A DNA stretch of 64,000 bases from Candidatus Omnitrophota bacterium (lineage in GTDB: Bacteria > Omnitrophota > Gorgyraeia > Duberdicusellales > 4484-171), in assembly GCA_024231025.1 (NCBI GenBank), contig JAAEQW010000341.1, forward strand, positions 54,155-118,154, given 5' to 3'. This document shows positions 1,130-26,971 of this stretch, piece after piece. Made by a program: the position numbers and the translations under genes. The notes under the pieces were generated by a model. That model did not search any database and was not told the origin of the DNA. It saw only the letters and a list, made by a program, of their open reading frames with translations. How positions within the stretch are numbered: position 1 is the stretch's first letter; each line of letters opens with the position of its first letter.

Positions 1130-1133
1130 ATAG

Positions 1134-2018: not shown

Positions 2019-2032
2019 TTTTTGCCGTTCTT

Positions 2033-7937: not shown

Positions 7938-8147
7938 TTAAATTCGTTTCGTTCCTCGCCCCGTTAATTTGTCTATACTAACCCCCAAAGCATCTGCCAA
8001 CTTAATAACCGTCTCAATCTTAGGATTTTTAATTCCACCTCGTTCAATTTTTATAATGGTATTATAAGAAATTTCTGATTCTACAGCGAGCTTTTCTTGA
8101 GACCATCCTTTTTGCTTGCGAAGTTTGACTAAATTCTTCAGATACAT
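7938..8147 (-). CDS. XRE-family (Cro/cI-type) HTH transcriptional regulator
   Basis: LRKQKGWSQEKLAVESEISYNTIIKIERG...IETVIKLADALGVSIDKL is the canonical HTH_3 pattern. Confidence 0.75.
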   Translation of the reverse strand: MYLKNLVKLRKQKGWSQEKLAVESEISYNTIIKIERGGIKNPKIETVIKLADALGVSIDKLTGRGTKRI

Positions 8148-8452
8148 ATTGTTTGACTCCTTGGTAGTATTGTGATACAGTATTGCAATACTATATTGGA
8201 TTACCCCGTATTGCTTTATTCTGAGCTATTTTAACTCGTTTCTTAATAAAATCAAGGAGATATATGTATAACTTCAATTTCTACCGCCAAAGCATAAAAT
8301 TGGGAGCAATAATTGCTTTGATTATATTGGTGATACAGATAATTTCCCTTGCGAGATAACGGGAGGGGGCAAGCCCCTCCCCTACAAAACAAAATAATAA
8401 TCAATGGATCGGGCGTAAAAAAATCCCCCATCCTTTTGGATGGGGGCGATTC

Positions 8453-8590: not shown

Positions 8591-8607
8591 TGGCTCCCCG
8601 GGTAGGG
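8591..8607. repeat. 17-nt duplicate of the tRNA-Asn 3' end (candidate att site of integrated island B)
   Basis: TGGCTCCCCGGGTAGGG here is identical to 20812..20828 (reverse complement of the last 17 nt of the tRNA including CCA); lies ~150 bp from the serine recombinase gene end. Confidence 0.65.
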
Positions 8608-8720
8608 GCAGAAATTACCTTAATAAAAACAATGGGAATATTTCTGCACTTCCTCGGGCAGTAGCCCTCGGTCGCTCAACAGCTGCCTTCGGCAGAGTTC
8701 GAGACCAAACGGGGACATAT

Positions 8721-8762
8721 AAAATAAAAATCCCCCGCAAAATGCGGGGGATATTTTATTCA
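8721..8762 (-). terminator. rho-independent terminator downstream of serine recombinase gene (probably bidirectional)
   Basis: CCCCCGC-aaaat-GCGGGGG stem flanked by A/T runs on both sides. Confidence 0.6.
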
Positions 8763-10369
8763 TGGCTCCCCGAAGAAACTTCAGGAACAATATCTCCCCG
8801 GAGCACCTGAGTAATATCGCTTCTAAACCTTTTAGACACTATACCAACTTGAACCTTGTCATTTCCTATCTTGATGTGTTGTAAAATCCAATTCAGAATA
8901 AACCTTTTCTGATAAAGTTTAAGGTGATCTTTAAATATCTCATCGAAAGAGCCAAGTAACCGCTTAACATCACCCTCCTCTAAAGACTGTACCTTTACGG
9001 CATTGATCTCACGATTAAGATGATCTATATTATCCATCATCTTTCTACGCCTATCATCCAATTCAGATAGCTTTTGCTCCACGAATGTCCTGCCTTTATC
9101 GATATTCATAAGATTATCCATAACTTTCTTGGCTTTAGCATTCACACTTTCAAGCTCAACGGCAAACACGCGTTTTTGCTCTTTAAGGCTGGGCAGTTGC
9201 CTGCTGAATTTCTCGTTTAGCTTTTCAGTAATCTTATGGAGCATAAGAGGAGTAGAGACGGCTGATTGCGTAAGGCGTTGAACGGCTAATTCGAGTTCCC
9301 GCTCCGGAACCTTAAATTTACACTCATCATTTGTACAGTAATAATAATAGTAAACTTTTCCGCTCTTGCCGTGCCCATTTCTTCCTTCCATTCTTGCACC
9401 ACATTGATGACAGCAAAGCACACCATTAAATATATACGTGTGTTTTGTAGGCTTTGCGCCATTATTCCGATGTTTGTAATTTTCTTTCAAGAGTTGTTGG
9501 GTTTTTTGGAACTTGCTCTCGTCGATAATAGCCGGCCAAACAGCCTTGCAAGTTGAATATCTCATTTTTTCCGGCAAAGATTCTTGTTTTTCAGCTTTAC
9601 GTTTTTTATTGATCTCTTTCATCCCAATATACGCCTTGTTGCTTAAAATCTTCAATATTGAACTATAGCAAAATTTCTTTGCCGGATGATATCTGTCACG
9701 ACGGGAGGTGTACTCTTTTGATAAGTAACCTTTTTTATTTGCTATTATAGCAGTTCTGACAACTGAACCGTTTTCAAGATAGGTATCAAATAGGAAACTT
9801 ACAACTTTAGCCTCCTTTTTATTAGGGATGAGATAACCTTTTTTGTTTTTATCTTCATCATATCCCAACAAAGGAACACCGCCATTAAATAACCCTCGTT
9901 GAGCTCGCGCATAAAGCCCTGAGATTGTTCGCTCGGAACATTGCTCTCGTTCAAATTGGTTTAATGCTCCCATTATCGTAAGGAAACATTTGCCCTGCGA
10001 CGTTGTTGTGTCAAACTGTTCCTTCAGGCAAACAAAATCTACTTTATTTTTATTGAAATAATCAACCATATCCAAAAGATCCCTTGTTGAACGGCTTATC
10101 CTCGACAAAGCAACGCACAGAACAGCATTGATCTTACCATCCTGTATGTCAGACATCATTCTAAGATACTCTGGGCGATTTGTATTCTTAGCAGAAATAC
10201 CTCGATCTACGTATGTGTCTACAATCACCCATTTCTGTTTAGTTGAGCTTGATTTCATCCTGACGTAATCTCGAAGCATCTGTTCTTGATTCTTGAGAGA
10301 CCCTTCTTCCAATTTCGCCTGCTTCTCAGTACTCACGCGTTGATAAAGGCTACATCTTTTTATTTCCAT
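8756..10369 (-). CDS. large serine recombinase (serine integrase type)
   Basis: N-terminal resolvase catalytic domain (YQRVSTEKQ with catalytic Ser, VALSRISR), recombinase domain, Cys-rich zinc-ribbon region (CCHQCGARMEGRNGH...YYYYYC) and C-terminal coiled coil; 537 aa. Confidence 0.85.
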   Translation of the reverse strand: MEIKRCSLYQRVSTEKQAKLEEGSLKNQEQMLRDYVRMKSSSTKQKWVIVDTYVDRGISAKNTNRPEYLRMMSDIQDGKINAVLCVALSRISRSTRDLLDMVDYFNKNKVDFVCLKEQFDTTTSQGKCFLTIMGALNQFEREQCSERTISGLYARAQRGLFNGGVPLLGYDEDKNKKGYLIPNKKEAKVVSFLFDTYLENGSVVRTAIIANKKGYLSKEYTSRRDRYHPAKKFCYSSILKILSNKAYIGMKEINKKRKAEKQESLPEKMRYSTCKAVWPAIIDESKFQKTQQLLKENYKHRNNGAKPTKHTYIFNGVLCCHQCGARMEGRNGHGKSGKVYYYYYCTNDECKFKVPERELELAVQRLTQSAVSTPLMLHKITEKLNEKFSRQLPSLKEQKRVFAVELESVNAKAKKVMDNLMNIDKGRTFVEQKLSELDDRRRKMMDNIDHLNREINAVKVQSLEEGDVKRLLGSFDEIFKDHLKLYQKRFILNWILQHIKIGNDKVQVGIVSKRFRSDITQVLRGDIVPEVSSGSHE

Positions 10370-10381
10370 TTATGCCTCCTC

Positions 10382-10747
10382 TCATTTTCTGTACCTTTTC
10401 ATCTGCTGGGTAAGATCTACAATTATCCAGCCATCATTTAAACGCGTAGCTTTGTACCTCCCTATAGCAAATCCTGCTTCTATTGCTTGATTGACAAGAT
10501 CGCAGTTGTTAATTATTAGAGCGGAATCATCCATGCTATTCAAAAAGTAAACATCAGGATCATCTATCCACCCTTGTTTTTGAAAAGGAAAGACGCAAAT
10601 ACGACTATGTTCTTTTTGAAAGATAACTTTAGCCATATCAAACTCTCTAGAAACCCATCTCCCGCATCCTTTGCTCAAATAAAGATTCCCTGCATTCCTG
10701 TAACTGCAATAATACATATTGTTTCGTTCAATAATTGTCTCTATCAT
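10382..10747 (-). CDS. hypothetical protein (121 aa), co-transcribed with serine integrase
   Basis: ORF 12 nt upstream of the integrase gene; no motif recognised. Confidence 0.45.
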   Translation of the reverse strand: MIETIIERNNMYYCSYRNAGNLYLSKGCGRWVSREFDMAKVIFQKEHSRICVFPFQKQGWIDDPDVYFLNSMDDSALIINNCDLVNQAIEAGFAIGRYKATRLNDGWIIVDLTQQMKRYRK

Positions 10748-11032
10748 TTTTATGCTCCTTATGATTTTGTGTTATAAATAGAAATATCCCGTCAGCTATC
10801 AAATGGACTATTTCATCTTCATTTGGATCTGTTACCATTGCTGGATCATTACGTAGCATAAAGGCCTCCTCGTTTTCTTGCCTCTATATTGCTAGTTTCC
10901 CATACCAATAACAGACTAAAAAGCATCTGCTATCAGCAATCCAGCAAAACGATTATTCTTTCACTTCGGTATTTATGTCATGACTGACGGCAGGAAATAC
11001 CTTACTCGCTCGAATATCGCTGGCGATTATTA

Positions 11033-11254
11033 TTAAAGCTCTACTTTTTTAAACATCGTGGTTGCGAAGCTGTTTTTTGCGCTCTGAAGAGCTGCATCAA
11101 TCGCCCCGAACATTTTTTCAACTTGCTCTACTGAAAAGGCGTACGACTTGCGCTCCGAACAATTTGCCAGGATTTCTAATTGCTCGATTATTCTGTTCGA
11201 TCTTTTCGTTGCTATCCGCTTGAACCTTTCTTGTGGTGTTTCGCTCATCGACAA
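11033..11254 (-). CDS. small 73-aa protein, paralog of 5058..5279
   Basis: See 5058..5279; heads the integrase operon. Confidence 0.5.
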   Translation of the reverse strand: MSMSETPQERFKRIATKRSNRIIEQLEILANCSERKSYAFSVEQVEKMFGAIDAALQSAKNSFATTMFKKVEL

Positions 11255-11395
11255 TCTCCTTCCGTTAATATAACGCTAATACTCAAGATATGCTCTATAT
11301 CTCATCTGCAATGATTATATCGTATATATATAATCATGTCAAGATTATTTTTATAACTTCAGGATAGCCTGAGATTGCTCTAGATTGAGGATTTA

Positions 11396-11475
11396 TTAGC
11401 AAAAAAGGTAAAATCCTTTACTCGGTTAAAAACCACCCTACATTTGAATGTAGACGAATTAGACAGCTATTCTGT
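11396..11475. repeat. ~75-nt repeated intergenic element, copy a (hairpin GGTAAA-n4-TTTACC plus CTACATT-TGA-AATGTAG palindrome)
   Basis: Shares AAAAGGTAAAATyCTTTACy...CTACATTT.AAT..AGACGAATTAGA.AGCTA.TC with copies at 12205..12280 and 18655..18715. Confidence 0.6.
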
Positions 11476-11541
11476 TATTCTTTTACGATCACACCCCTCT
11501 TTATCATTTATCTTAAAGCCATGCTGTGATAAAATGACATC

Positions 11542-12186
11542 ATGATTGATTATAACTGGATCTTCAGTGCATTGGTCCAATCCTTAGCCGCAATGATTGG
11601 GGTAATAGGCATGTTTGCGGTATATAGATTGCAAACACAAGAAAAAATAATCGAGAAGAAATTTGAAAAGTTTCGTATATTCTTAGAAGAAAATACAGGA
11701 ACGAAGATAGATAATCCTACGGAAGAAAGAATTATTGAAAAAGCCAAAGGTGTTAGACAGAAATACCAAAAAATCATTAACGATTCCCCAAATAACCTTA
11801 ATGTTATGAAAAATACACAAGGATTCACCGATAGTGCAATGGAACAAGCATCAAGCATAGCCGATGTGGGGATAGAAATATTTAAAAAACATACCATAGA
11901 TATTGATAACTTTAATGCATCTATAGAGCAACATAAAAATAAAAATAAAGATATATCTAAACAAGCTTTAGATATAGTAGGTCAACTAGTTTTTCTGTTT
12001 GGTTTAAGCGTGTTAGTGCTTATATTTAGTAAAGTACTTACTGTGACAAATACTGAGTTGTTTGAACCGGGAACAATGACAGTAGTATACGGAGGGCTTG
12101 TTGTTCTAACTATAGTCTCTATTTATCTTGTCATTTTGTTGCGTACTATATATGTTTTCTGCAACACCTGTTTTTCTGTTAAGTAA
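11542..12186 (+). CDS. hypothetical membrane protein (214 aa)
   Basis: N-terminal TM (IFSALVQSLAAMIGVIGMFAVY) and two C-terminal TM segments; flanked by repeat copies a and b. Confidence 0.5.
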   Translation: MIDYNWIFSALVQSLAAMIGVIGMFAVYRLQTQEKIIEKKFEKFRIFLEENTGTKIDNPTEERIIEKAKGVRQKYQKIINDSPNNLNVMKNTQGFTDSAMEQASSIADVGIEIFKKHTIDIDNFNASIEQHKNKNKDISKQALDIVGQLVFLFGLSVLVLIFSKVLTVTNTELFEPGTMTVVYGGLVVLTIVSIYLVILLRTIYVFCNTCFSVK

Positions 12187-12204
12187 CTGATTTTAAAATA
12201 GACT

Positions 12205-12280
12205 TAAAAGGTAAAATTCTTTACCCTATCAAAAGCTACTCTACATTTAAATACAGACGAATTAGAAAGCTACTCCTATC
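12205..12280. repeat. repeated intergenic element, copy b
   Basis: See 11396..11475. Confidence 0.6.
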
Positions 12281-13053
12281 TTCTTTTGTGCTTTGAGGAA
12301 TAATCGCTTTGAGACAATGGGCGGGTGTGTTCCTTGGACATGAAAATTACCAAAGCTGGTTTCACCATAATACATCTTATTTCTTAAAACATACTTTAAA
12401 GATTGAATCTGAAATTGTTTACCTCGTTTAGTGGTTGCTCGTAACTTATTAAGCTTACGAACAATGGTTGTATATTTATGTCCCTTAACTAGCCACCTAA
12501 ATATTCTGACTACGTTCTTAGCTTCAGTTGGTTTAATCTCGAGCTTCTTGCCAACCTTAACATAACCAAAAGGTATCGGTCCAGACCCACGTTCACCGTT
12601 CTTAGCGTTATTAATTCTCCCGTCTTTAAGGCGGGCAGTAATAACGTCCTTTTCTAATTCAGCAAAAACATCAGCAATACGCTTAAAAGCTTTCTGTAAA
12701 GGGTCATCTAGATTATATTCTGGGTCTACTACAGAATTAATCTCGATGTCATGTTTCTTGAATTGTGTCTCAAGCCAAAGAGATACAGTCAACTCGCGAC
12801 TCAACCTATCTTGTTTGTAAACAATGACATTATCAATAAGACCATCTTCGCAATCCTTTAATAGTCGCAACAAACCCGGCCTTTCTTTTATCGCACCACT
12901 AATACCCTTATCTTCATAAAATCTGTTAAGCTCCAGATTCTTATCCTTACAATATGCCTCAATCTTATCTCTCTGGATTTCTAATCCTTCGCCGTTTTCG
13001 ACTTGATTAGCAGTTGATACTCTGAGATACCCTACATTATATCTAGATTGCAT
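12262..13053 (-). CDS. serine recombinase (resolvase/invertase-type catalytic domain plus recombinase domain, 263 aa)
   Basis: GYLRVSTANQ catalytic motif, VYKQDRLSRE; shorter than the 537-aa integrase (no zinc ribbon or coiled coil). Confidence 0.8.
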   Translation of the reverse strand: MQSRYNVGYLRVSTANQVENGEGLEIQRDKIEAYCKDKNLELNRFYEDKGISGAIKERPGLLRLLKDCEDGLIDNVIVYKQDRLSRELTVSLWLETQFKKHDIEINSVVDPEYNLDDPLQKAFKRIADVFAELEKDVITARLKDGRINNAKNGERGSGPIPFGYVKVGKKLEIKPTEAKNVVRIFRWLVKGHKYTTIVRKLNKLRATTKRGKQFQIQSLKYVLRNKMYYGETSFGNFHVQGTHPPIVSKRLFLKAQKKIGVAF

Positions 13054-13221
13054 AAGAATTACCCTCCCAATACAATAGATAAACCATCGAGGAATTAAAA
13101 TGTCAAGTTTCGTGTTGAAATAGTTGCCTAAGGCAGATCAGAAACAGTGTCAGGGAGAGTGCATATTGCAAGATGGGTAATGATTTATGGCTGGAAAAGT
13201 TAAAGATTTTTAAAAAAATGT

Positions 13222-14406
13222 TTAGTTCTTGCCGATAACGTATTTTTTAAAATAGTTCTTAGTACCTCCGAAGTACGTTTTAACCCTAGCAATACCAAAA
13301 AAATCATAATATCGCTTAGTAGTGGATCCATCCTGTGCTATGTCTCGTTTTTTAGCATATCGTGCATAAAATGGCTTGTCTTTTGGAGATAGAACGACAT
13401 CAATGCATGCGCTTGGTCGTATCGCCCGTCTAAGAAGCGTTCTTAGGTGATAGTCGGCTTCTGGCAAAGAATACCCCACAAAAACAACCCTATCCGCTGT
13501 GGCTAATTCTGCGTAAGCATTATACCATACTGTCCTTATATGAATATTATCAAAATTCTTTTCAAAGGTCGGCGTAATAATATACGGTTGCAAGACGTGT
13601 TTGTTCTTTTTTCTTCTTACTGTGTGCCCTAGACAATGCTTACAAAAACTATCTTGCACGTACAGTTTTCGCCCCTCATTTGCCCCTAACCCTGTATACA
13701 TCCTGTTACAGTTGGGACAAAAAAGCCAATTAATGGAGCCATGTAGTTTAAGAATTTTTATTCTGTTTTTTTCCTCTTGATTAACAGGCGGAATGGCTAT
13801 CCCGTCACAATCTTCCTTTAGTCGCAAAATGCAACAACAAAAATCTGTGCTGATTTGTTGCTTTTTGTTTTTTGTTTTCTTGGTAATTTTATACACAGAG
13901 TCTTCTAGCAAAGAGTCCCAATTCAAAGATATTACGCTGAGCCTATTTCCTCTTGACCGTTTTTTTATCGTCTCTTTAACAAAATGACTTGCTAAAGAAT
14001 CATAAAATTTATCACCGGTAGTTTCTGAACGTAAAGAAGCTTCATGGAATACAGTTAAAATAAGCCGTTTCAAATCGTCTCTAATACTGTCTAACTCTTT
14101 CCAAGAATAATCAAAACAATTACGTCGTTGCGCTATGGTTTGATCTAGCAATGTAAATAAGTCTTCTAGACTAGGTAGGGCGTTGGGATAAAATATCTGA
14201 TCAATAAATTCTCTGAGCTCTTTTCTCCGAACAAGACTTTCGCCATACAATATATCAAACTTTTGGGAAAAAACTTTAGTTAAAATGAGTCGCTGCAAGG
14301 GAAACCCCGCACCATACGAGAATCCTGCTCCGAATACATAAACTGTCTTGGTAGGTAGGGCTGTTCTCACTTCAGTTTGAAATGTTGGTTTAGCACCTTG
14401 GCCCAT
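13222..14406 (-). CDS. SIR2_2-family sirtuin-like protein (defence-type SIR2)
   Basis: N-terminal Gly-rich NAD loop VYVFGAGFSYGAGFP, LHGS motif (KLHGSINW), zinc ribbon CPNCN...CKHC, Rossmann strand VVFVGYSLPEADYHL. Confidence 0.7.
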   Translation of the reverse strand: MGQGAKPTFQTEVRTALPTKTVYVFGAGFSYGAGFPLQRLILTKVFSQKFDILYGESLVRRKELREFIDQIFYPNALPSLEDLFTLLDQTIAQRRNCFDYSWKELDSIRDDLKRLILTVFHEASLRSETTGDKFYDSLASHFVKETIKKRSRGNRLSVISLNWDSLLEDSVYKITKKTKNKKQQISTDFCCCILRLKEDCDGIAIPPVNQEEKNRIKILKLHGSINWLFCPNCNRMYTGLGANEGRKLYVQDSFCKHCLGHTVRRKKNKHVLQPYIITPTFEKNFDNIHIRTVWYNAYAELATADRVVFVGYSLPEADYHLRTLLRRAIRPSACIDVVLSPKDKPFYARYAKKRDIAQDGSTTKRYYDFFGIARVKTYFGGTKNYFKKYVIGKN

Positions 14407-15788
14407 ACAATACAGTGTCGAACACCGTCTGGCCCAAGAACTTTTTCTAGAGTGCCTTTAGTTTTATTAAGATTTCTAACAATTTCTTTTATGGTCGGCG
14501 TGTTATGATACTCCCGTTTCTTGCACCACATATAATGTGTCACAGTCTTGTTTTTTGTCTCGGTAGCCGGGTATGGCTTGCCTTTTGCAGAATGCTTCAT
14601 TTCTCCATATTCTTTAAATTCACTTTCCGGATTATTTTTTATAATATCCTTACACATTTTACAACTACAAACCGTTTTATAATATCCTGTGATTGTTTTT
14701 GAACCCCCCACAGCACGAAGGGCACGAAGGGCATCGCGGAAAAGAAGTCGCGTGTGTAGTTGTGGAAAATAAAATTTTGCCGCAGGAAAGCCTCCACCCA
14801 CAGGAACAACTCCACGATATTCACCGTATTCTAAACTATGTGCGACCCCTACTAGATTTGGCGTTATCCCGCTTTTGCCTAAAGCCACGGAAAAAAATCC
14901 CCCGTACAGATTTGCTACTGGAGCAATTTGCCCTAGCCTATTAATTAAATTAATTAAGGCTTCTAGCTTTATGGCCGAAGCATCTTGTTCATACAAATCG
15001 TCTACCCACAATAAGAAAATGTCCGGCTTAACTTTTGCATATTCTTCTACGAGCATATCAATTTTTTCATTATCTATTAAGATATCCTGAGATATAACAA
15101 TTTGGCTTGCCAAAGGTTTCTTTTTTGCCTTTAAAATTTTCTTAGAAATTTTAGAACACATTACATTTACCTGCAACCACTTTTTAAATTCACTTTCGAA
15201 TAAGTAAAAATATGGTGCTACAATAGTTGTCGGAGAAAACATATCCGACACTTTTAGCCCGATATATCTGTAATACTTTGCAGCATCGGATCCTTCCAAT
15301 TCCCTAGAAACGGTTTCCAGCTGAAAGTTAATAACTCTCTGACAAAACCCCCGTGTTACTGACGAATCTTTAAAATCTTTGGGAATAAGTGGTCGTTTTT
15401 TATTAAGTATGCTCGTTTCTACAGGCTCACCGAAGGCATCTATTAATTTTTTAATTGATTTCTTTATTTGCCCTTTTGATTTTTCAGATTGAGACTCTAT
15501 AAGGCTCAAATCATGCTGAAAGGCATGCGTTTGAGGGTCTATTATATACGGCTTATTTTTTGCCTTTGTGGAAATAAACATAGCTATCGCGCTTGTCATA
15601 TATGCCATAATGTTTGCATTCACAATAAGCTGATCATAGGTGGCCAAAAGACTGCCTAGCAAAAACTTCTGATCAGCGGCTGTTCCAAACCGTACTAAAT
15701 GAAATCCTGCTATTGGCTTCATGCTTCCTGAACGTCTTGTTTGTTTTTTTGGATATACTTTTTTATCCATGTTTTTCCTACTCGCCAA
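14367..15788 (-). CDS. hypothetical protein with weak tRNA-guanine transglycosylase (Tgt/DpdA)-like features
   Basis: C-terminal CSCKMCK...H (CxCxxC..H) zinc motif as in TGT; LYGGFFSVALG and LVGVAHS resemble the Tgt GGLAVGE and LMGVGKP segments; weak, by eye only. The 40-nt overlap with the SIR2 gene suggests the true start or stop may differ. Confidence 0.35.
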   Translation of the reverse strand: MASRKNMDKKVYPKKQTRRSGSMKPIAGFHLVRFGTAADQKFLLGSLLATYDQLIVNANIMAYMTSAIAMFISTKAKNKPYIIDPQTHAFQHDLSLIESQSEKSKGQIKKSIKKLIDAFGEPVETSILNKKRPLIPKDFKDSSVTRGFCQRVINFQLETVSRELEGSDAAKYYRYIGLKVSDMFSPTTIVAPYFYLFESEFKKWLQVNVMCSKISKKILKAKKKPLASQIVISQDILIDNEKIDMLVEEYAKVKPDIFLLWVDDLYEQDASAIKLEALINLINRLGQIAPVANLYGGFFSVALGKSGITPNLVGVAHSLEYGEYRGVVPVGGGFPAAKFYFPQLHTRLLFRDALRALRAVGGSKTITGYYKTVCSCKMCKDIIKNNPESEFKEYGEMKHSAKGKPYPATETKNKTVTHYMWCKKREYHNTPTIKEIVRNLNKTKGTLEKVLGPDGVRHCIVWAKVLNQHFKLK

Positions 15789-16138
15789 ATTTCTCTAGAG
15801 CGTGGTGCTGATATAACCTCTTCAAATGGCCACCGTCCGTCCTCGCGATAAAACTTAAGACCAACTCCTGCTGATTTGAGGGCTCTCCTCATTTCTTGCG
15901 TAATTTTGCGCTTGGGCATACACACGTAAGAAAAGTCTGCTCCTAATTTATGGTCGTATGATTGTCGTATCGCTCTGCGCCAATTGAAAAGCTTAAACTC
16001 TATGGCAACAACTGTATTATTTTCAATATAAACTAGATCCGCAAACCTCCCCAACACAGGAACCTCACGGCACACATCCATTGAGAAATGTTGCGTCAAT
16101 CGTTTATAAGCACTATCCACAAGGGTTCGTTCACACAT
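15719..16138 (-). CDS. small PD-(D/E)xK-fold nuclease-like protein
   Basis: GRFADLVYIEN...VVAIEFKL gives a D...ExK motif in a beta-strand context; 139 aa; the overlap with the upstream ORF suggests an internal start. Confidence 0.5.
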   Translation of the reverse strand: MCERTLVDSAYKRLTQHFSMDVCREVPVLGRFADLVYIENNTVVAIEFKLFNWRRAIRQSYDHKLGADFSYVCMPKRKITQEMRRALKSAGVGLKFYREDGRWPFEEVISAPRSREIWRVGKTWIKKYIQKNKQDVQEA

Positions 16139-16724
16139 TGCGCTTCTTAAAAATCCTTTCCGCTATTTTGGAGTTTGTTGCCATTTTAGGATATTTTGTA
16201 TAAACATATCTCAACAGAGCATACAAAGAGATCTCTAAGCAACGACATTTAAAAGTATGAACACCCTCCCATTGCTCTGCTGTTAAATTTCCCAAATTGC
16301 CATCTTTAACAAAATTTAAACCATTGTTCGTTAAAGAAAATTCAACTGCGTTATTGCGCTCGTTATCAGAACCACCTGCTATTCCTGAACTCACCTGCCA
16401 ATATTCATACTCACACATATCTTCTTCTGCCTCCTTGTCCGAACACGAAGGCCGCGGATTTACAAAGCCAAGGTTAACTAAAAACTCTAGGTCTGCGTAG
16501 ATTTGATCCGCAAAAGGTCCATAGTCATACGGCTGGAAGTCAGGAAAAGCAGAGTCCGGAATGGCTTTTTCCAAATTGAACTTAGCACGGATTTCTTTCT
16601 GAAACAAGAAAACCATTTTTACCATACGAATGCGTGTTCGTATCGGTTCGTTCTTTTGCCCCTTATATCCTTTGGCATAAAGCAATAGCATTATAATATC
16701 TTTTGTGCTTGTTATTTTCGCCAT
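16131..16724 (-). CDS. hypothetical protein (197 aa), first gene of the SIR2 operon
   Basis: ORF overlapping the downstream gene by 8 nt; no motif recognised. Confidence 0.45.
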   Translation of the reverse strand: MAKITSTKDIIMLLLYAKGYKGQKNEPIRTRIRMVKMVFLFQKEIRAKFNLEKAIPDSAFPDFQPYDYGPFADQIYADLEFLVNLGFVNPRPSCSDKEAEEDMCEYEYWQVSSGIAGGSDNERNNAVEFSLTNNGLNFVKDGNLGNLTAEQWEGVHTFKCRCLEISLYALLRYVYTKYPKMATNSKIAERIFKKRNV

Positions 16725-16891
16725 GTTTCCCTTTGCATGTTCTTGCCTCTATTTTTATTATAAATCCGTTTCCGGCATAATCAAGAACTTCTTGGCCCGG
16801 CATTTTCGCTGTTTTTGATCTCCACACTACACCTTATATAACAAAGGGTTTGTTTTATTGACACCTGTTTCATTCTTACTATAATAAAGCC

Positions 16892-17701
16892 ATGAAAGAA
16901 ATCGATACTTATTTATTCCACTACGCAGAAAAACAATATGACACCCAAACTGCTTTACTAAGAGACATAAACACAAAGATAGCCAATGTGCTTGTTGCTA
17001 TAGGTTTTTTGTTAACCCTCACTGCCTATCTGGCTAATGCTATATTTAAATTACAATTAGAGCCATGGTTGCTCTTACCACTCTTAACCCCCTCGATCCT
17101 GGGTGCATATAGCTTCTTAAGGGCTCTAGGCAGAGTTATACATTTTTTGAGGCTCCAAGAATATAAGCTACCGTCTATGGAGGCAGACATTCAAAAGGCA
17201 ATCATAGATCTGCAAAAGAAAAACAAAGATGAAACAAACGAAAGTGATATTCTTCAGGATCTTACCCAAAATTATATTACAGCTTTTAATGATAACATGA
17301 CTTCGGGATCAGAAAGGCACAAGCTTTTCAAGATTCTCGTCAACTATATTCGTAACGGGATTATATCAATTATTATATCTTTTGTGGTTTTATTTTTTAT
17401 AAAAACACCCACCTGTCTATTGACCGGTAAAGAAAAAAGGGAGGAAGTAAAAATGATAAGGAACATGGACCAGGAAAAAGAAGAAGAGCAAAAACAAGAC
17501 AATGAGCCTAACAACGAAAAAAATAATAGTGCCCAGCCTCAGGAACCGTCACAGGAACCTGAAAAAACTCAACAACCGTCTGTTCTCGGCAATCCAACGC
17601 TAGTGACAGCGTCTGATCATTCTACAGATTCTGAAACGGTGAGTTCTGACGATAATAAATCAGAAAGCAAGCCAGAAAACGAATCAGAAAAACAGGAATA
17701 A
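16892..17701 (+). CDS. hypothetical membrane protein with acidic low-complexity C-terminus
   Basis: TM segments (VLVAIGFLLTLTAYLANAIF; IISIIISFVVLFFI); C-terminal E/Q/N/S-rich tail. Confidence 0.5.
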   Translation: MKEIDTYLFHYAEKQYDTQTALLRDINTKIANVLVAIGFLLTLTAYLANAIFKLQLEPWLLLPLLTPSILGAYSFLRALGRVIHFLRLQEYKLPSMEADIQKAIIDLQKKNKDETNESDILQDLTQNYITAFNDNMTSGSERHKLFKILVNYIRNGIISIIISFVVLFFIKTPTCLLTGKEKREEVKMIRNMDQEKEEEQKQDNEPNNEKNNSAQPQEPSQEPEKTQQPSVLGNPTLVTASDHSTDSETVSSDDNKSESKPENESEKQE

Positions 17702-17826
17702 AGGCATATGTCTGAGCGCAATAAGACGTATTAACTACTCCTGCCACGGGTTAAAATTCAGCTATCAAAGTAATGGTACAAGTATCCATAAACCCATTAC
17801 CCTGATGTTCCGTATTTACAAAATAC

Positions 17827-18000
17827 TTATACAGATCCTCTCAAAAGCAAGTCAAACACGCAAATAACTGTTACAATTATTGTAATAATCGCGAGAAGTT
17901 TCACAACGATGCCTTCTTTTCGGTCTCCCGACCTTGTCAAAAACGAAATCATTCTCGTAGTCACATAAAACCCTATCATCATCCCGATTGATGGTATCAT
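17827..18000 (-). CDS. unannotated small hydrophobic protein (57 aa), possible type I toxin or holin-like peptide
   Basis: ATG at 18000 preceded by AGGAGG 6 nt upstream; translation MIPSIGMMIGFYVTTRMISFLTRSGDRKEGIVVKLLAIITIIVTVICVFDLLLRGSV; not in the ORF track (<60 aa). Confidence 0.4.
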   Translation of the reverse strand: MIPSIGMMIGFYVTTRMISFLTRSGDRKEGIVVKLLAIITIIVTVICVFDLLLRGSV

Positions 18001-18027
18001 CTACAACCTCCTTTTGTGTGATTCATG

Positions 18028-18444
18028 CTAATTCTGCCATGCGGTTAGTTTCCCGTCTTCAAAATAATAATAACTACCGTTATAAACTACTTGTTCAAAA
18101 ACACCATAAGACGTAACAGTCCTGTTAATTTCAGGATAAGACCACAACCCCATGACTACCTTTAGATCCGATTTGGACATCCCGATCCATACCTGGCCTT
18201 CGCAAACTCTAATTTTTGTCTGTTCATCTGCAAATAATTCTGGGTGCTTCGCTACATACACTTCTCTGCGATATTGATAAATACTGACTTTATCACCTGT
18301 AATGGGTCCTGTATAACTAACAAGTCCACACCCTATGCAAAATAATGTAGCTACAAAAATCAATATTATTGAAACTTTCTTCTCCATAATTCCTCCTTCC
18401 GCCCTCCCCAAAAAAAGGGGGGAGCGCATTTCTACTACCGACAA
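18028..18444 (-). CDS. probable lipoprotein/secreted protein (true start probably MEKKVSII... near 18384)
   Basis: Signal-like IILIFVATLFCIGCG; a GC hairpin at 18401..18428 lies upstream of the likely start. Confidence 0.5.
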   Translation of the reverse strand: MSVVEMRSPLFLGRAEGGIMEKKVSIILIFVATLFCIGCGLVSYTGPITGDKVSIYQYRREVYVAKHPELFADEQTKIRVCEGQVWIGMSKSDLKVVMGLWSYPEINRTVTSYGVFEQVVYNGSYYYFEDGKLTAWQN

Positions 18445-18654
18445 CCGTTAAGTAAATCCGATAGAGCTGCATTCTCCCCGTAATTACAGGAACCAACAAC
18501 TCCACCACACTTAACGGTTAACAGGGCCAAACCCTGTCTTATGGCAAAATTAAATTACACCTAATTATATGAACACTTAAAGTTTATCACCCTCCTTACT
18601 ATCAGACAAGCTAAAAACTATTTGAGCCTACATTACCCCTAGATTGGGTTTTTA

Positions 18655-18715
18655 CAGATTTAAAAGGTAAAATTGTTTACCTACCTATTAAAGTCGCTAC
18701 ATCGATAAACTAAAG
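18655..18715. repeat. repeated intergenic element, copy c (partial)
   Basis: AAAAGGTAAAATTGTTTACC...CTACAT shared with copies a and b. Confidence 0.5.
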
Positions 18716-18741
18716 CCATTCTGCCTTATTCGGTATTACTT

Positions 18742-19920
18742 TTAGTAACATTCTCCCCAAGTTTTACCTATCTTACAAGAAACGGTAAATTTCATACCTT
18801 TAATTTCTATCTCCATGATCTCTTTAATTCTTTGCAAGCTCTTATCAATTTCAAGATCGGGAACTATAACAAGTGCTGAATCATGAACTGTAGCGCTTAT
18901 CTTGAAACCTTCACTATGAAGTTTAACTAGGGAGAATTTAAGAATATCTGCAGCAGTGCCCTGAATGCAATGGTTAACAGCCCGCCTTTCAGCTTTCTTA
19001 CGATCAGTTATGTTGGAAGCATTTATATCAAGAAGAAATCTCTTACGCCCATAATAAGTTTCAGTAAAACCTGTAGAGCGTGCTTTCTTAATTGTTTCTG
19101 ACTTAAAACTTTCTATCTCAGGTATTTTAGATTTATATACGTCCATTAATTCTTGGGCTTCGCTTATTGATATATGTAGGTTTCTGGCTAGACCATTGGC
19201 TTCTTGTCCATACGCCAATCCGAAATTAAGCGTCTTGCCTAGCTTACGTTCTTTATCAGTAACGGAATCATACAGAACCCCCTTCATGTCAGCAACAACT
19301 TTCCTATGTAAATCCAACCCTTTAGCCCAACACTCCTTGAAATACACATCATCAGAGAGAGCGCTAAGTATTCTCAGTTCAAAGCTATTATAATCTGCTA
19401 TGATGAACGAATGACCACCATCTGCGCATATGATACCTCTAGCCACTTCAGGGATACTTTGGAAACTATAGCTTTTTGTGTATAATCGTCCTGACATGCA
19501 TGTATCTATGTACCTACAGAATATCTTACCTTTAGCTTTATCAGTAGCTTTATGAATTGCCTTCAGAGAGCTTAAGAGTTTCTCTAGGTTGCGGTAGGTT
19601 GCAATTTTATCGGTAAGGGGGTTATTGACGCCTTTAAGCACTCTCCGAGAAGTGCTGTACCGGCCTGTTCTCGTCCTCTTAGGATTAACCCCTAAAACCT
19701 TGAATAGAATATCGGCAACATCCCTTGAACTATTGAAGTTAACCTCACCTTGAATACCGAGTATTTGCTTGAGTTCTTGTTCAATTCCGTTCTTCTCTTG
19801 CAAGGTTTTCTGGATTAATTTATCAAGTTTAGGAAAATCTACGTTTAGACCGCGTTGTTCCATCGCTTGCTTAACGTTAATCATGTCGTGCTCTAGGTTT
19901 TCTATAATTTTACTATGCAT
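18742..19920 (-). CDS. stand-alone family-A (Pol I-like) DNA polymerase domain, no exonuclease domains
   Basis: Motif A IIADYNSFELRILSALSDD, motif B RKLGKTLNFGLAYGQ, motif C TVHDSALV, plus RRAVNHCIQGTAADILK; 392 aa covers the thumb/palm/fingers only. Confidence 0.8.
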   Translation of the reverse strand: MHSKIIENLEHDMINVKQAMEQRGLNVDFPKLDKLIQKTLQEKNGIEQELKQILGIQGEVNFNSSRDVADILFKVLGVNPKRTRTGRYSTSRRVLKGVNNPLTDKIATYRNLEKLLSSLKAIHKATDKAKGKIFCRYIDTCMSGRLYTKSYSFQSIPEVARGIICADGGHSFIIADYNSFELRILSALSDDVYFKECWAKGLDLHRKVVADMKGVLYDSVTDKERKLGKTLNFGLAYGQEANGLARNLHISISEAQELMDVYKSKIPEIESFKSETIKKARSTGFTETYYGRKRFLLDINASNITDRKKAERRAVNHCIQGTAADILKFSLVKLHSEGFKISATVHDSALVIVPDLEIDKSLQRIKEIMEIEIKGMKFTVSCKIGKTWGECY

Positions 19921-20015
19921 TTTCGTAATGGTTTAATGTGTTGGGGACCCCCTACCCCCAACATCAATATATAAACCATCGCATTTTCTGCGTGTCAATA
20001 AAACATTTGAAATAG

Positions 20016-20480
20016 TTACGGCCTAACCTTTGAGTTTATAATATAAAACTCTTGTGCGACTAGATCTTTTGTGCCGATTTTCTTTATCAGGTAATACGAA
20101 GCTCCCCCTAACGGGTTATATCCTTCAACTAACGAAGTACCTCCGAAAAACTTTTTTGCTTTATTGTTGATTATCTCTGCATGCTTGGGATCGATTCGAT
20201 CGATAAGAGCGTGAATATGTATTCCGGCTGACGATGTACTGTGCCTTTCATAAAACACAAGACACCGAACAAAACTATCAAAGTATATTTCGTCATTCTT
20301 ATTGAGATATTTTATGAACCGCTTAAACTCTTTCTTGGCTGTCTCGTAAGAGACAAACTTTCTAAAATTAGCGTTGAAAAACAATGTCCACTCATAATCT
20401 CCCAACAAATACCGCCTATACGCCTCTAGAATTATCTGCCTCTTGTTCCATGCAAGGTTATCTTCGAGTTTAATCTTCAC
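20016..20480 (-). CDS. small HUH-endonuclease Rep-like protein
   Basis: HUH motif GIHIHALIDRI and downstream YY motif (GGASYYLIKKIG) typical of rolling-circle Rep or relaxase catalytic core; 154 aa. Confidence 0.5.
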   Translation of the reverse strand: MKIKLEDNLAWNKRQIILEAYRRYLLGDYEWTLFFNANFRKFVSYETAKKEFKRFIKYLNKNDEIYFDSFVRCLVFYERHSTSSAGIHIHALIDRIDPKHAEIINNKAKKFFGGTSLVEGYNPLGGASYYLIKKIGTKDLVAQEFYIINSKVRP

Positions 20481-20757
20481 AATTTACCTCCTGTCTTTAG
20501 ACAATAAAAAAGGGATACCAGAGTGCAAACTAAGGTATCCCTTATGATTAATAAAACCGATTTTTGATGATTGGCTACTTGGGAATTCGCCATCTTTTCG
20601 CCTCTCATTAATTATACTTGTCAGTGTTGCCACTAGGCATAAATAAAAAAAGGCAGCCGCGTTTTCTTGCGACTGCCTTTTAATTTTCCTCTGAAATTTC
20701 TACTTTTATACGCCTTTTTGCGTTAATAACAATGGCGTTGTGATTCTTTCTGCCCCT

Positions 20758-20803
20758 ACAAAAAGAAACGGGAAGCGTTAGCCATAATACTAAACGCTTC
20801 CCG
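20758..20803 (-). terminator. rho-independent terminator just downstream of the tRNA gene
   Basis: On the minus strand CGGGAAGCGTT-loop-AACGCTTCCCG followed by TTTCTTTTTGT. Confidence 0.55.
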
Positions 20804-20811
20804 ATATTATT

Positions 20812-21232
20812 CTGGCTCCCCGGGTAGGGCTCGAACCTACGACCTATTGGTTACAGTTACCCTCTAAGTTTCCTTAAAGACTGGACTATATCATTACCGT
20901 CCCGCCATGGGCGGGATACGGTATCAGGCGCTTCGACCCCGAAATTTCGGGGGCTACTCCCTCGCGGGATAGTCTCTGCACGTTCTCCGAATAATCGGAG
21001 CTTCGCTCAGGATTGCCATATTCTTACGAACTTAGGTTTCCCTGAATTCACCTGATTCTTCACTCTACAGTTTCCTGTAGAGGCTGCCATGCACCGAGAT
21101 CCTTCGACTCAGTCGACCTAAGGTCTCCTTCACTCAGGATCAATTCGGCTATATAATTTTTCTGCCGTTTTTGGCCTGAAAAATTATAGTCTCATTGACA
21201 GCCAACCGCTCTACCAATTGAGCTACCGGGGA
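20812..21232 (-). tRNA. tRNA-Asn(GUU) interrupted by a 345-nt group I intron in the anticodon loop (exons 21198..21232 and 20812..20852); CCA encoded
   Basis: 5' exon UCCCCGGUAGCUCAAUUGGUAGAGCGGUUGGCUGU and 3' exon UAACCAAUAGGUCGUAGGUUCGAGCCCUACCCGGGGAGCCA fold as a standard cloverleaf (U8, A14, G18G19, TTCGAGC T-loop; anticodon loop CU-GUU-AA). The splice follows U35 and the intron ends with G. Confidence 0.75.
20853..21197 (-). ncRNA. group I self-splicing intron within the tRNA
   Basis: Intron contains R-like element GUGCAGAGACUAUCC (plus 20965..20980 as reverse complement) and S-like element GAUAUAGUCC (plus 20882..20891), which can form P7 GACUA/UAGUC. Candidate IGS GCAG pairs with exon end CUGU (U.G at the splice site). 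No intron ORF. Confidence 0.65.
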
Positions 21233-21319
21233 ATCACCAAATCTTAAGAGAACGAAAAGTCTTTAAATTATAACCTATTTGCATTTTATCGTCAAGTAAA
21301 GCGCAAACTTGAAAAATAT

Positions 21320-21730
21320 CTATTTCTTTTTTATATTAGCCAAAACCCACTCGAATATTCTTTTAGTAGATTTTGCTACATCGTGGGCTTCTTTTTCGTG
21401 AATACTACGGCAGTCATATTGGATGGCGTTCTTTTTGGCAATAATCCTTTTCAGAGCAACGCTTTTTTCTTTGTCACCAGGTAAAGATACAGTCGCCATA
21501 AGGTCGCAAACATCTTTATGGTCTTGAGAGATGGACCTTGTGCCTAATCTATAGACGCAGATAGCATCAGCTGAAGAAATAACGCATTGTATGGCTAATG
21601 TTCCTACGGCATTGTAGTTCTTATGGTTCAAGGCAGAAATCATTTCTTCGTAATTATCTTCGGCCTTTTTAAGATATTGGTATGATGCCGCGGGATCTTC
21701 TTGTCTGGTTCTTATATTCTTTGGTCCCAT
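21320..21730 (-). CDS. HEPN-domain protein (toxin of a HEPN/MNT pair)
   Basis: R-x5-H motif (RSISQDH) in a helical context; 136 aa; directly downstream of the MNT gene. Confidence 0.6.
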   Translation of the reverse strand: MGPKNIRTRQEDPAASYQYLKKAEDNYEEMISALNHKNYNAVGTLAIQCVISSADAICVYRLGTRSISQDHKDVCDLMATVSLPGDKEKSVALKRIIAKKNAIQYDCRSIHEKEAHDVAKSTKRIFEWVLANIKKK

Positions 21731-21733
21731 ATG

Positions 21734-22363
21734 TTATATCCAGTCCAAAGGATCTTCTCCGTAAATCACCGAGTAAGATTTTATAAGTGACGCAACAGGA
21801 GAAAGCCTCTTTTTTAAACGGTTAATAAATTCTTTTTTGGTTTTGATATAGGGATCAAGGCGTACCTGAAAATATTCATCAAAATCATAAGATATTTTTT
21901 CAATAAAAATTTCTTCTATGAGGGGCAAGTCTTTTATGTTATTTGCAACAATAGCTATATCAACATCGCTTTTTTCGGTGGCTTGCTTTGTGTGTCGGCT
22001 CCCATAAAACATAACTGAAGCTAGTTTGTTGGAAATTTTATGTTTTCGAATAGCCGCAGTTATGAAGCTTATAGCATCTTTTAAAAAAGAATCTTCTTTA
22101 CGAAAGGCAGGCATTAGTATTGTTTTTACTAATCGACTTTTGACGTTTAATCGGTATAGATGAAGTTTTCCTTTTATTTCGCGGTTAAGAATACTATACT
22201 CATATAGCTCTTTAAGCGCAGCGTGAGTTGCAGGAGGGCTAAGCTTAATTGCTCTAGAGATTTCCCGACCGCAGGCCATAAAATCTTCGCGATAAAAAGT
22301 AAAGAATCGCACGATTTTAACTTTAGCGTTTGTATTAAGAATGTTATCTAGTGATTTCTCCAT
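21734..22363 (-). CDS. minimal nucleotidyltransferase (MNT) with N-terminal wHTH (antitoxin-like)
   Basis: FYGSRHTKQATEKSDVDIAIV gives the GS...D.D polymerase-beta-like NTase motif. Confidence 0.6.
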   Translation of the reverse strand: MEKSLDNILNTNAKVKIVRFFTFYREDFMACGREISRAIKLSPPATHAALKELYEYSILNREIKGKLHLYRLNVKSRLVKTILMPAFRKEDSFLKDAISFITAAIRKHKISNKLASVMFYGSRHTKQATEKSDVDIAIVANNIKDLPLIEEIFIEKISYDFDEYFQVRLDPYIKTKKEFINRLKKRLSPVASLIKSYSVIYGEDPLDWI

Positions 22364-25300: not shown

Positions 25301-26971
25301 TTAATCGTCTGTGTGGAGCTGGCCGCCAAAAGCATCTAGGATATTATTTATAAAATCATCAGGGCTGCCTGAAGCTTGCACACCACCATCAACTTTCACC
25401 TCTTCTTCATCATCCTGCAACTGAAGGTTAAAATCAACTGGCGCGATATCTTCCAAAGCAAATTTGATTTTTACATCTCTGCCTAAAAATTCAGTAATAA
25501 AATTCTCTACAAAGCTGCGATTTTTCTCTTTCTCGACAATCTCCTTATGAAAATAATCTTTTTCACCAAAAGCAACCTTAACAAAATTTCCCTGCGATGA
25601 AAAAGGCTGAGCGAATGAAAGGTGTGAGGCAATTGCTGCCCTTATCTTATGCATTTGAGAAAGAATGCTCTCCCACTTAGTCTTAATCTCAGGCAGTATT
25701 GAATTATCTTCTTTGGCCAGCGGTTTATCAATTGTTCTCACGTCAACTGCGGCTGCCTCTTCTAAATCAAGATTATCCAGCTCTAGCTCAAACTCATCGC
25801 CTAATTCAACGCTTAACCTTTCCTCGCTAATTTCAGGTTTTACTTTTGGTTTAGCTGGCTTAACCGGCATTACCATGTCCTCGCTAGGTATCGCAAATTT
25901 TATAAAAGCAAGCTCTAAAGGGACTCTCACGGTATTGAGCCTGCGAGAAAGTTCTTTTGCTTCAATAAGTAAATCAATTACTTTTAGAATTTCGGCAATG
26001 GTAATGTTTCTTGATGTTTTAAGAAAAAACTCTTTACTATTTGGTGAAACTTCTACTAGATTGTTAAAGTTTTTTTCGCTGATTTTCGCAAGAAGCAGAT
26101 TGCGCAAGCTTTCAATTAAACCGTTAAAGAACACTCCTAAATCTTTTCCATCTTTAATTAAGTTATCGATAAAACCTAACAAAAATGATAGATCTCTATT
26201 AACCAAAGCTTCAACTGCCTGATTAAGACTTACTTCGTTCATGATCCCCAAAAAACCAAGAAGATCATCAACTGCCGCCTTCTGGGCAACAACCGGTGCA
26301 ATCTGATCAAGAAGCGACTCAGCATCACGAATGCTTCCTGCCGCCGCACGGGCAACAACGTATATTAAATTTTCATCTACCTTTAAGTTCTCAACTTTAA
26401 TTATCTTGTGCAATTTCTCAACTATCTTTTCAATCGTAAGTAAACTAAATTGAAATTTCTGACAGCGAGAAAGAATTGTTGGAATAATTTTTTGAGGATG
26501 AGTAGTCGCAAAGATAAACTTTACATGCTCAGGCGGCTCCTCCAACGTTTTAAGTAACGCATTGAAAGCCTCTTGAGTGAGCATGTGTACTTCATCAATA
26601 ATATATATTTTATAGTGGGCGTGTGCCGGTGAAAGCTTTGCTGCCTCTCTTAATGCGCGTATTTCATCAATCCCACGGTTTGAAGCACCATCAATCTCAA
26701 TAACATCTAAAGACACTCCTTTAGTGATATCCACACAGCTAACGCATTGACCACACGGTTTGGTTGTTGGTCCTTTATCGCAATTAAGTGATTTAGCTAA
26801 AATCCTGGCTAAAGATGTTTTACCCACCCCTCTGGGGCCGGTAAAAAGATAGGCATGGTGCACGCGCTTACTCTCAATGGCCTTTTTAAGCGTAGCTACC
26901 ACGTTTTCCTGACCTATAACTTCATCAAAAATCTGGGGCCGATATTGTAGTGCAAAAGCTTTATAACTCAT
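25301..26971 (-). CDS. dnaX: DNA polymerase III subunit gamma/tau
   Basis: AAA+ Walker A GPRGVGKTS, zinc module CDKGPTTKPCGQCVSC, sensor motifs; 556 aa. Confidence 0.9.
   Translation of the reverse strand: MSYKAFALQYRPQIFDEVIGQENVVATLKKAIESKRVHHAYLFTGPRGVGKTSLARILAKSLNCDKGPTTKPCGQCVSCVDITKGVSLDVIEIDGASNRGIDEIRALREAAKLSPAHAHYKIYIIDEVHMLTQEAFNALLKTLEEPPEHVKFIFATTHPQKIIPTILSRCQKFQFSLLTIEKIVEKLHKIIKVENLKVDENLIYVVARAAAGSIRDAESLLDQIAPVVAQKAAVDDLLGFLGIMNEVSLNQAVEALVNRDLSFLLGFIDNLIKDGKDLGVFFNGLIESLRNLLLAKISEKNFNNLVEVSPNSKEFFLKTSRNITIAEILKVIDLLIEAKELSRRLNTVRVPLELAFIKFAIPSEDMVMPVKPAKPKVKPEISEERLSVELGDEFELELDNLDLEEAAAVDVRTIDKPLAKEDNSILPEIKTKWESILSQMHKIRAAIASHLSFAQPFSSQGNFVKVAFGEKDYFHKEIVEKEKNRSFVENFITEFLGRDVKIKFALEDIAPVDFNLQLQDDEEEVKVDGGVQASGSPDDFINNILDAFGGQLHTDD

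Follow-up and report, generated by a model that had tools for sequence, protein, structure and literature searches.

The DNA analysed here (the window) is a stretch of 64,000 nt from contig JAAEQW010000341.1 (positions 54,155 to 118,154, forward strand) of the Candidatus Omnitrophota bacterium assembly GCA_024231025.1. The sole tRNA gene in the window is a tRNA-Asn(GUU) gene that is split between anticodon positions 35 and 36 (35/36) by a 344-nt group I intron lacking an open reading frame (ORF). This intron belongs to a family of IA1-type introns, and it is highly probable that it splices itself from the precursor to yield tRNA-Asn. The gene is made up of the following parts:

20813-21232, minus strand: split tRNA-Asn(GUU) gene, with a 35-nt 5' exon, a 344-nt intron and a 41-nt 3' exon, CCA encoded
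21267-21295, minus strand: promoter-like site, TTGACG-17-TATAAT, matching 11 of 12 consensus positions and located about 35 nt upstream of the first base of the tRNA
21198-21232, minus strand: 5' exon, tRNA positions 1-35, TCCCCGG...GGCTGT (in full, TCCCCGGTAGCTCAATTGGTAGAGCGGTTGGCTGT), the last base of which is U35, the U(-1) of the 5' splice site
20854-21197, minus strand: group I intron of subgroup IA (IA1-type family), 344 nt, without an ORF, identified with Rfam model RF00028 and by covariation
20813-20853, minus strand: 3' exon, tRNA positions 36-76, TAACCAAT...GGGGAGCCA (in full, TAACCAATAGGTCGTAGGTTCGAGCCCTACCCGGGGAGCCA), assigned from its sequence and starting with UAACC

When the two exons were joined in silico at 35/36, ARAGORN recognized a canonical 76-nt tRNA-Asn(gtt) with the anticodon loop CUGUUAA. 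The annotated full-length matches to the tRNA body (U1-A72, G73) are tRNA-Asn genes with 83-87% identity. The promoter-like site is close to the sigma-70 consensus and lies on the same strand as the tRNA, and its -10 region and the leader are retained at an apparently orthologous tRNA locus in a metagenome (JGI Ga0210133_1001730, hereafter L151). The original prediction, made from the sequence of the window alone, was correct in the lengths of the two exons and the encoded CCA, but it placed the end of the gene at 20812 and gave the intron 345 nt, both of which are off by one. As base 20812 is a G beyond the CCA, the CCA ends at 20813 and the intron is 344 nt long. Splicing at the uncorrected ends produces a defective anticodon loop of 6 nt, while the corrected ends produce the canonical tRNA-Asn.

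With default settings, ARAGORN called no tRNAs in the whole 64-kb window. With intron detection (-i), it reported a tRNA-Thr(tgt) gene with a 344-nt intron at 33/34. An analysis of metagenome-assembled genome (MAG) completeness or codon usage would therefore count tRNA-Asn as missing. The body of the tRNA is identical in the tRNA-Asn 35/36 and tRNA-Thr 33/34 registers and both have a 7-nt anticodon loop, so evidence independent of the exons was sought. The gene is not a tRNA-Thr(UGU) gene for several reasons. First, in the tRNA-Thr register, the 3' base of the intron would be C, not G, and the covarying P9.0 helix would be shifted away from the 3' splice site; because P9.0 lies directly before the last G, the intron's 3' end is G20854. 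Second, the U·G pair of P1 would be found two bases within the intron. As U(-1)·G in P1 and P9.0-ωG must both fit, 35/36 is the only possible register. Third, the body of the tRNA fits annotated tRNA-Asn genes. Fourth, an identical 2-nt mis-call by ARAGORN and tFind has been documented and was disproved using sequenced spliced products (PMC13011429). Finally, 15 relatives of the intron were also called as tRNA-Thr among the matches listed (at least 119 loci, described below), and all 15 become tRNA-Asn under the U(-1)/ωG rule. Taken together, these points effectively refute the tRNA-Thr identity, to which we assign almost no probability. The spliced product, the annotated tRNA-Asn matches, the P1 U·G pair and P9.0/ωG all agree with the tRNA-Asn(GUU) identity and the 35/36 position that had originally been predicted.

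A covariance-model search had been proposed as a check on the intron, and its result was strongly positive: Rfam RF00028 matched at 21106-20862 of the minus strand over the full model (1-253) with 101.3 bits (gathering threshold 50, E-value: 4.4e-25). This was the only Rfam match in the window at the gathering threshold. The group I core elements that had been noticed earlier are all present, namely an R-like element (CAGAGACUA, 20978-20970), an S-like element (GAUAUAGUCC, 20892-20883), U(-1) at 21198 and the terminal G at 20854. The longest open frame in the intron is 49 codons. In 5' to 3' order along the intron, the core comprises the following elements:

21083-21088, minus strand: internal guide sequence, GGCAGC(C), forming the 3' side of P1 and pairing with 21202-21197, with G21087 in a wobble pair with U21198
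21064-21080, minus strand: P2 hairpin, UCUACAG GAAA CUGUAGA, with compensatory changes at all 6 pairs
20978-21055, minus strand: P3 5' strand (21055-21049) and P4-P5-P6 domain, from the alignment structure
within that domain, minus strand: P4 21045-21040/21012-21007, P5 21036-35/21017-16, P6 21006-04/20980-78 and P6a 21000-20996/20989-85
20970-20974, minus strand: P7 5' strand GACUA, inside the R element CAGAGACUA (20978-20970), pairing with 20888-20884 and invariant in 32 of 32 aligned sequences
20937-20969, minus strand: two hairpins, P7.1 (20969-20958) and P7.2 (20952-20937), situated between P7 and P3', from the fold
20924-20930, minus strand: P3 3' strand CGCCUGA, pairing with 21055-21049, where the G-C of most relatives is replaced by A-U in a compensatory manner
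20895-20923, minus strand: P8 hairpin, 4 of 5 pairs of which covary
20883-20892, minus strand: S element GAUAUAGUCC with the P7 3' strand (20888-20884), from RF00028 and the alignment
20854-20882, minus strand: P9.0 (A20882-U20855 and G20881-C20856, covarying), P9 hairpin (20879-20862) and ωG (20854)

The structure was scored in an alignment (A2) of the window intron with 31 diverse ORF-less relatives (32 sequences). Sixty-seven pairs in 14 helices were included: the anticodon stem, P1, P2, P3, P4, P5, P5a, P6, P6a, P7 (a pseudoknot), P7.1, P8, P9.0 and P9. The two sides could pair in 98.5% of the cells of the alignment, compared to 33-42% when the 3' partners were slid by 1-3 columns. The covariation score was 0.488, compared to no more than 0.10 in the slid controls, and the observed values were reached in none of 500 shuffles. 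Compensatory changes on both sides were found at 38 pairs. P9.0, on which the 3' splice site depends, covaries at both of its pairs (AU in 17 sequences and GC in 15; AU in 16, GC in 11 and CG in 5) and is followed by an invariant ωG. The U(-1)·G pair of P1 is present in 32 of 32 sequences (U21198·G21087 in the window), and the GCAGC of the guide sequence, which pairs with the exon GCUGU as P1, is invariant across the family. Every scored helix, including the P3/P7 pseudoknot, forms in the window copy and all of the family-invariant positions are intact. As the RF00028 score of the window intron exceeds those of all 16 sampled family members (65.9-97.0 bits), there is no sign of core decay. The presence of P7.1 and P7.2 hairpins between P7 and P3', both of which are also found in the related introns L048, L117 and L151, places the intron in subgroup IA. 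Its probable assignment as IA1-type follows the label of homologous tRNA-Asn introns.

The setting of this intron had been described as unusual in the original prediction, as bacterial tRNA introns are known mainly from other tRNAs, but this view is out of date. Williams (2020; bioRxiv 10.1101/2020.01.27.920355) extended the IC3 tRNA introns from four classical types to 21 settings, and these include Asn.4Ug as cited in PMC13011429. Splicing was then shown in 2026 by Nakagawa et al. (mSystems, PMC13011429), who found that standard tools overlook or mis-call such tRNA introns. They demonstrated precise self-splicing in vitro at 35/36 for a tRNA-Asn intron from GCA_016700035.1, in which exon ligation was stopped by an ωG-to-C mutation, and guanosine-dependent self-splicing was shown for both this intron and a tRNA-Asp intron from GCA_001029755.1. 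In the same study, 25 of 28 introns at 35/36 belonged to subgroup IA and some carried HNH endonuclease genes; tRNA-Asn introns from Nitrospirota and Patescibacteria are labelled IA1 in its Table S5. The window intron aligns helix for helix with the spliced GCA_016700035.1 intron, including covarying P4/P6 and P9.0 pairs. Its core also aligns with that of GCA_016700015.1, and motifs are common to it and the Nitrospirota members in the table.

The window intron has the same host tRNA, U35|U36 insertion site, U(-1)/ωG ends and GCAGC guide as the Asn.4Ug or IA1 introns at 35/36. Their helices are also the same (P2 and P3-P9 with P7.1/P7.2 and P9.0), and they are missed by the same tools with the same ARAGORN mis-call of tRNA-Thr(UGU) at 33/34. 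In longer members of this group the HNH gene is located in the P1 loop (L1), which is also the site of an insert in the window intron. The window intron differs from the published 35/36 introns in that it has a structured 108-nt L1 with no ORF and no recognizable remnant of a homing endonuclease gene (HEG) and, as far as the published survey is available to us, in its Omnitrophota host. Based on these results, it is a further member of a known and experimentally validated family, to which the Omnitrophota host and the 108-nt L1 variant are additions.

By analogy with these homologs, splicing would proceed as follows. The precursor would be transcribed from its own sigma-70-type promoter. P1 would then arise from the guide GGCAGC pairing with GCUGU, in the 5' half of the anticodon stem-loop, and with the intron's first base, and a U35·G wobble would mark the site of cleavage. 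Once bound in P7, a free guanosine would attack after U35, and ωG (20854), positioned by the 2-bp P9.0, would subsequently take its place so that the exons are ligated. The predicted product is a normal 76-nt tRNA-Asn with the anticodon loop CUGUUAA. The L1 insert would be a peripheral extension at the site that is occupied by the HNH gene in relatives, and would leave P1 intact:

21089-21196, minus strand: lineage-specific 108-nt L1 insert with two hairpins, one with an 11-bp A/U-rich stem and one with a GC-richer stem

From GGCUGU through GCAGCC, the sequence forms these two hairpins, and an intact P1 of 8 bp closes them (-47.6 kcal/mol, z = -6.1). The distance from the 5' splice site to the guide is approximately 7-12 nt in most relatives and 15 nt in L151, while it is 108 nt in the window. 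Intron lengths in the family are bimodal among the matches listed (213-391 nt and 543-561 nt). The introns of 543-561 nt (L003, L006, L015, L024, L117 and 14 other loci) encode an HNH endonuclease (CxxC...HH...CANCH) in the P1 loop, such that ORFs of approximately 320 nt are accommodated in L1 of relatives. Introns of intermediate length (L056, L060, L103 and L075) keep HNH fragments, such as CANCHREAHAS in L056, and constitute a decay series. The possibility that the window insert is itself a decayed HNH gene is not supported. Two profiles were used for searching, one built from 19 HEG proteins of the family and the other from the DNA of the L1 regions of those members; against the window L1, the protein profile gave only an E-value of 2.4 and nhmmer gave no match, although the same profiles detect the debris in L056, L060, L103 and L075. 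Pairwise alignment of L1 with that of the nearest HEG-bearing relative, L117, likewise showed no convincing similarity. A repeat or miniature inverted-repeat transposable element (MITE)-like origin was likewise not supported, as no second copy of the insert was found within the 64-kb window.

The insert opens with CAAUGAGACUAUAA, which includes GAGACUAU (21184-21191); this is the same as the sequence context of the P7 5' strand, CAGAGACUAU (20969-20976). This observation was made post hoc, and GAGACUAU may be a decoy for the P7 3' strand or may be due to chance.

Given this insert, it could be proposed that the gene is a disrupted pseudo-tRNA, with an intron that does not splice (perhaps crippled by the insertion in L1) and with another tRNA-Asn gene serving the cell. 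The insert is missing from the ortholog L151 and from most relatives, it holds the copy of the P7 strand and the DNA available for inspection is 64 kb of the genome, all of which would fit this proposal. However, the core helices and family-invariant positions are all intact, no sampled member has a higher RF00028 score, P1 closes around the insert, L1 is where relatives tolerate HNH ORFs of approximately 320 nt, and the promoter is intact. We therefore regard a pseudo-tRNA as unlikely. Alternatively, the intron might be functional but splice only conditionally, or with the help of a chaperone or cofactor, through its enlarged P1 loop, and in this way regulate the supply of tRNA-Asn. The L1 extension is large and stably structured with no detected coding remnant, and regulatory roles for such introns have been speculated upon (PMC13011429). 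In opposition to this, a conserved counterpart of the insert was not found in any relative, the sequence indicates no ligand- or protein-binding motif, and much larger L1 inserts (the HEG ORFs) are common in the family, so we judge such dependence to be very unlikely. It is a similarly speculative and quite unlikely idea that the insert is a functional module gating the formation of P1 or P7 and making tRNA-Asn maturation conditional. The points that can be cited for such a module are the absence of the insert from L151 and all sampled relatives, the lack of an HEG trace and the GAGACUAU copy of the P7 strand. If this were true, L1 would switch the supply of a single tRNA at the RNA level in an Omnitrophota bacterium with a small genome.

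We thus favour an autonomously self-splicing intron, while recognizing that several points weigh against it. Splicing in this organism is a prediction from homologs that self-splice in vitro. GAGACUAU in L1 could compete for the P7 3' strand, and a 108-nt L1 is unusually long for an ORF-less member, which could mean slower folding or the need for a chaperone. P10 is weak, with approximately two potential pairs by inspection. Furthermore, an intron-less tRNA-Asn gene may exist beyond the visible 64 kb, and if it does, selection on the split copy would be relaxed.

To place the intron within its family, a genome collection (one genome per species) was scanned with a family-specific pattern and at least 119 loci were recovered. 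By record title, these belong to Nitrospirota (35), Acidobacteriota (20), Methylomirabilota/Rokubacteria (14), Binatia (7), "Deltaproteobacteria"/Desulfobacterota (7), Ignavibacteriota (6), Bacteroidota (6), Actinomycetota (4), Planctomycetota (3), Omnitrophota (3), Patescibacteria (2), singletons (7) and unclassified records (5); these counts are biased by the search pattern and are not prevalences. A split tRNA spans the match in 110 of the 119 listed loci, and 85 were called directly as Asn(GUU) at 35/36. Approximately ten listed loci (L005, L012, L020, L039, L046, L052, L057, L101, L105 and L116) were called by ARAGORN as Asp, His, Pro, Ser or Ala in inconsistent registers. Some of these appear to be tRNA-Asp(GUC) genes with an intron at 35/36 (for example L052, CUGU|CAC), while in others extended P9 regions may mislead exon finding. 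One further listed locus, L029 (CAMBFS010000088.1), has a family tRNA-Asn 35/36 intron in a MAG labelled Klebsiella pneumoniae; this contig is probably mis-binned.

The published complete-genome survey found 35/36 introns to be enriched in Patescibacteria and rare elsewhere, with occurrences only in Patescibacteria, Cyanobacteriota, Nitrospirota, Bacillota_A, Bipolaricaulota and Pseudomonadota; the sole Omnitrophota entry in the available rows of its Table S5 is an IC3 intron at 33/34 of tRNA-fMet (PMC13011429). The window intron is therefore from a phylum that is not listed there for this position. In uncultivated lineages, the IA1 tRNA-Asn 35/36 family has a far broader distribution than complete genomes had suggested. 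The general understanding of group I introns is unchanged by the window intron, which adds one phylum and one structural variant. Worth recording, in our view, are its occurrence in Omnitrophota, its structured L1 of 108 nt, its affinity to introns of the Patescibacteria type (below) and the wide spread of the family across phyla.

Among the matches listed, the intron closest to that of the window in core identity (76%) is the HEG-bearing L117 of Candidatus Buchananbacteria (Patescibacteria), and L048, L026 and L112 are also close. The Omnitrophota family loci among these matches are L009, L092 and L103, of which L009 was left out as it is cut by a contig end; the other Omnitrophota introns show 61-64% core identity to the window. 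In a neighbour-joining tree, the window intron groups with L117, L048 and L112. As the exclusive pair of the window and L117 has a bootstrap value of 0.30, only a loose grouping with these three is claimed. The nearest relatives thus appear to be Patescibacteria-type introns rather than those of other Omnitrophota, which is consistent with the HNH homing endonuclease of longer members having spread the introns horizontally.

A metagenome scan with the P7-P7.1 signature of the window's sub-lineage identified a further 39 loci (L120-L158). These are hosted by tRNA-Asn, by tRNA-Tyr(GUA) (7 loci) and by genes called "Ile(tat)" (2 loci), while a further 18, of which some lie at contig edges, received no tRNA call. 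This range of hosts points to movement of the sub-lineage among tRNAs with GUN anticodons and perhaps into other hosts. L151, the apparent ortholog of the window locus, has near-identical tRNA exons and a 300-nt intron of the same sub-lineage, with an L1 of approximately 15 nt, a separate insert of approximately 48 nt in P6a and compensatory differences in P2 and P3. Because L151 keeps the intron sub-lineage without the 108-nt L1, the intron appears to have been inherited in this lineage and the L1 insert to be specific to the window branch.

Two other groups of group I introns are relevant for comparison. The classical bacterial introns of tRNA-Leu(UAA) at 34/35, tRNA-fMet at 33/34, and tRNA-Arg(CCU) and tRNA-Ile(CAU) at 36/37 (Anabaena/Nostoc, Azoarcus and Agrobacterium) are likewise self-splicing ribozymes in the anticodon loop, mostly ORF-less and with P1 formed from the anticodon stem-loop. 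Unlike the window intron, they belong to subgroup IC3, lack P7.1/P7.2 and are found in other tRNAs and positions. Subgroup IA introns of phages, for example those of Vibrio, Ralstonia and Bacillus, some of which are annotated as Intron_gpI, have a similar core (blastn identity of 74-83% over approximately positions 154-305 of the intron). In contrast to the window intron, these interrupt protein-coding genes (DNA polymerase and capsid), and the similarity is confined to the core.

The 3' end of the tRNA gene is also the boundary of an integrated element, as had been suggested in the original prediction. The features of this element are as follows:

20813-20829, minus strand: proximal copy of a 17-bp direct repeat, CCCTACCCGGGGAGCCA, at the tRNA 3' end, an exact match and putative attachment (att) core
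8591-8607, minus strand: distal copy of the repeat, CCCTACCCGGGGAGCCA, exact and in the same orientation
8608-20812, no strand assigned: integrated element of approximately 12.2 kb between the repeats, with Pfam and PADLOC matches
8756-10369: large serine recombinase of 537 aa, beside the distal repeat
12262-13053: second serine recombinase
13222-14406: SIR2-like gene
16131-16724: PDC-M19A-like gene
18742-19920: PolA-like (family-A polymerase-like) gene with a DRT "RTasPolA" match
20016-20480: Rep-like ORF

The repeat was located using a k-mer search, and its expected number by chance is approximately 0.001 (extrapolated). No second copy of tRNA 3' segments of 24-25 nt was found with up to 3 mismatches. 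The repeat lies wholly within the 3' exon, and the intron is untouched. The element looks like a small defence island mobilized by the large serine recombinase. As with other tRNA-targeted integrative elements, a repeat of the tRNA 3' end bounds a region with a recombinase and defence-like cargo. It differs from the usual tRNA islands in that it encodes a large serine recombinase instead of a tyrosine integrase, this gene is located at the end far from the tRNA, and the target tRNA is split by an intron.

The use of this tRNA as an integration site is supported by the repeat, the serine recombinase and the organization of the ortholog, which retains the ancestral neighbour. In L151 (locus 2152-4201), the tRNA is followed by a different serine recombinase ORF of 513 aa (2370-3911, minus strand; 29% identity) that runs antisense into the tRNA 3' exon. 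Beyond this ORF, approximately 1.4 kb from the tRNA, is a gene that is 76% identical to window positions 7959-8213, just outside the distal repeat. As a different recombinase gene lies between the tRNA and this homolog, L151 does not represent a genuinely empty site; the L151 locus yielded no repeat of the tRNA end of at least 10 nt. These results suggest that the 3' end of this tRNA-Asn gene has been used repeatedly by serine recombinase elements.

Past the distal repeat (224-5061) lie further mobile or defence-like genes: one at 224-1129 for an N6-adenine methyltransferase of the Dam type, one at 2033-3706 for a HATPase_c_3 protein, and one at 3703-5061 whose product has motifs of the RNA polymerase alpha-CTD and of sigma-70 region 4. 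On the other side, directly upstream of the tRNA promoter, are an ORF with a HEPN domain (21320-21730) and a nucleotidyltransferase ORF (21734-22363), which together (21320-22363) look like a HEPN/MNT-type toxin-antitoxin pair. DnaX, encoded at 25301-26971, shares 100% identity with a protein from a "Candidatus Omnitrophica bacterium" MAG, and the best matches after it, with approximately 58% identity or lower, likewise come from Omnitrophota. Across the final 12 kb of the window (52000-64000), the G+C content climbs from approximately 0.39 to approximately 0.45.

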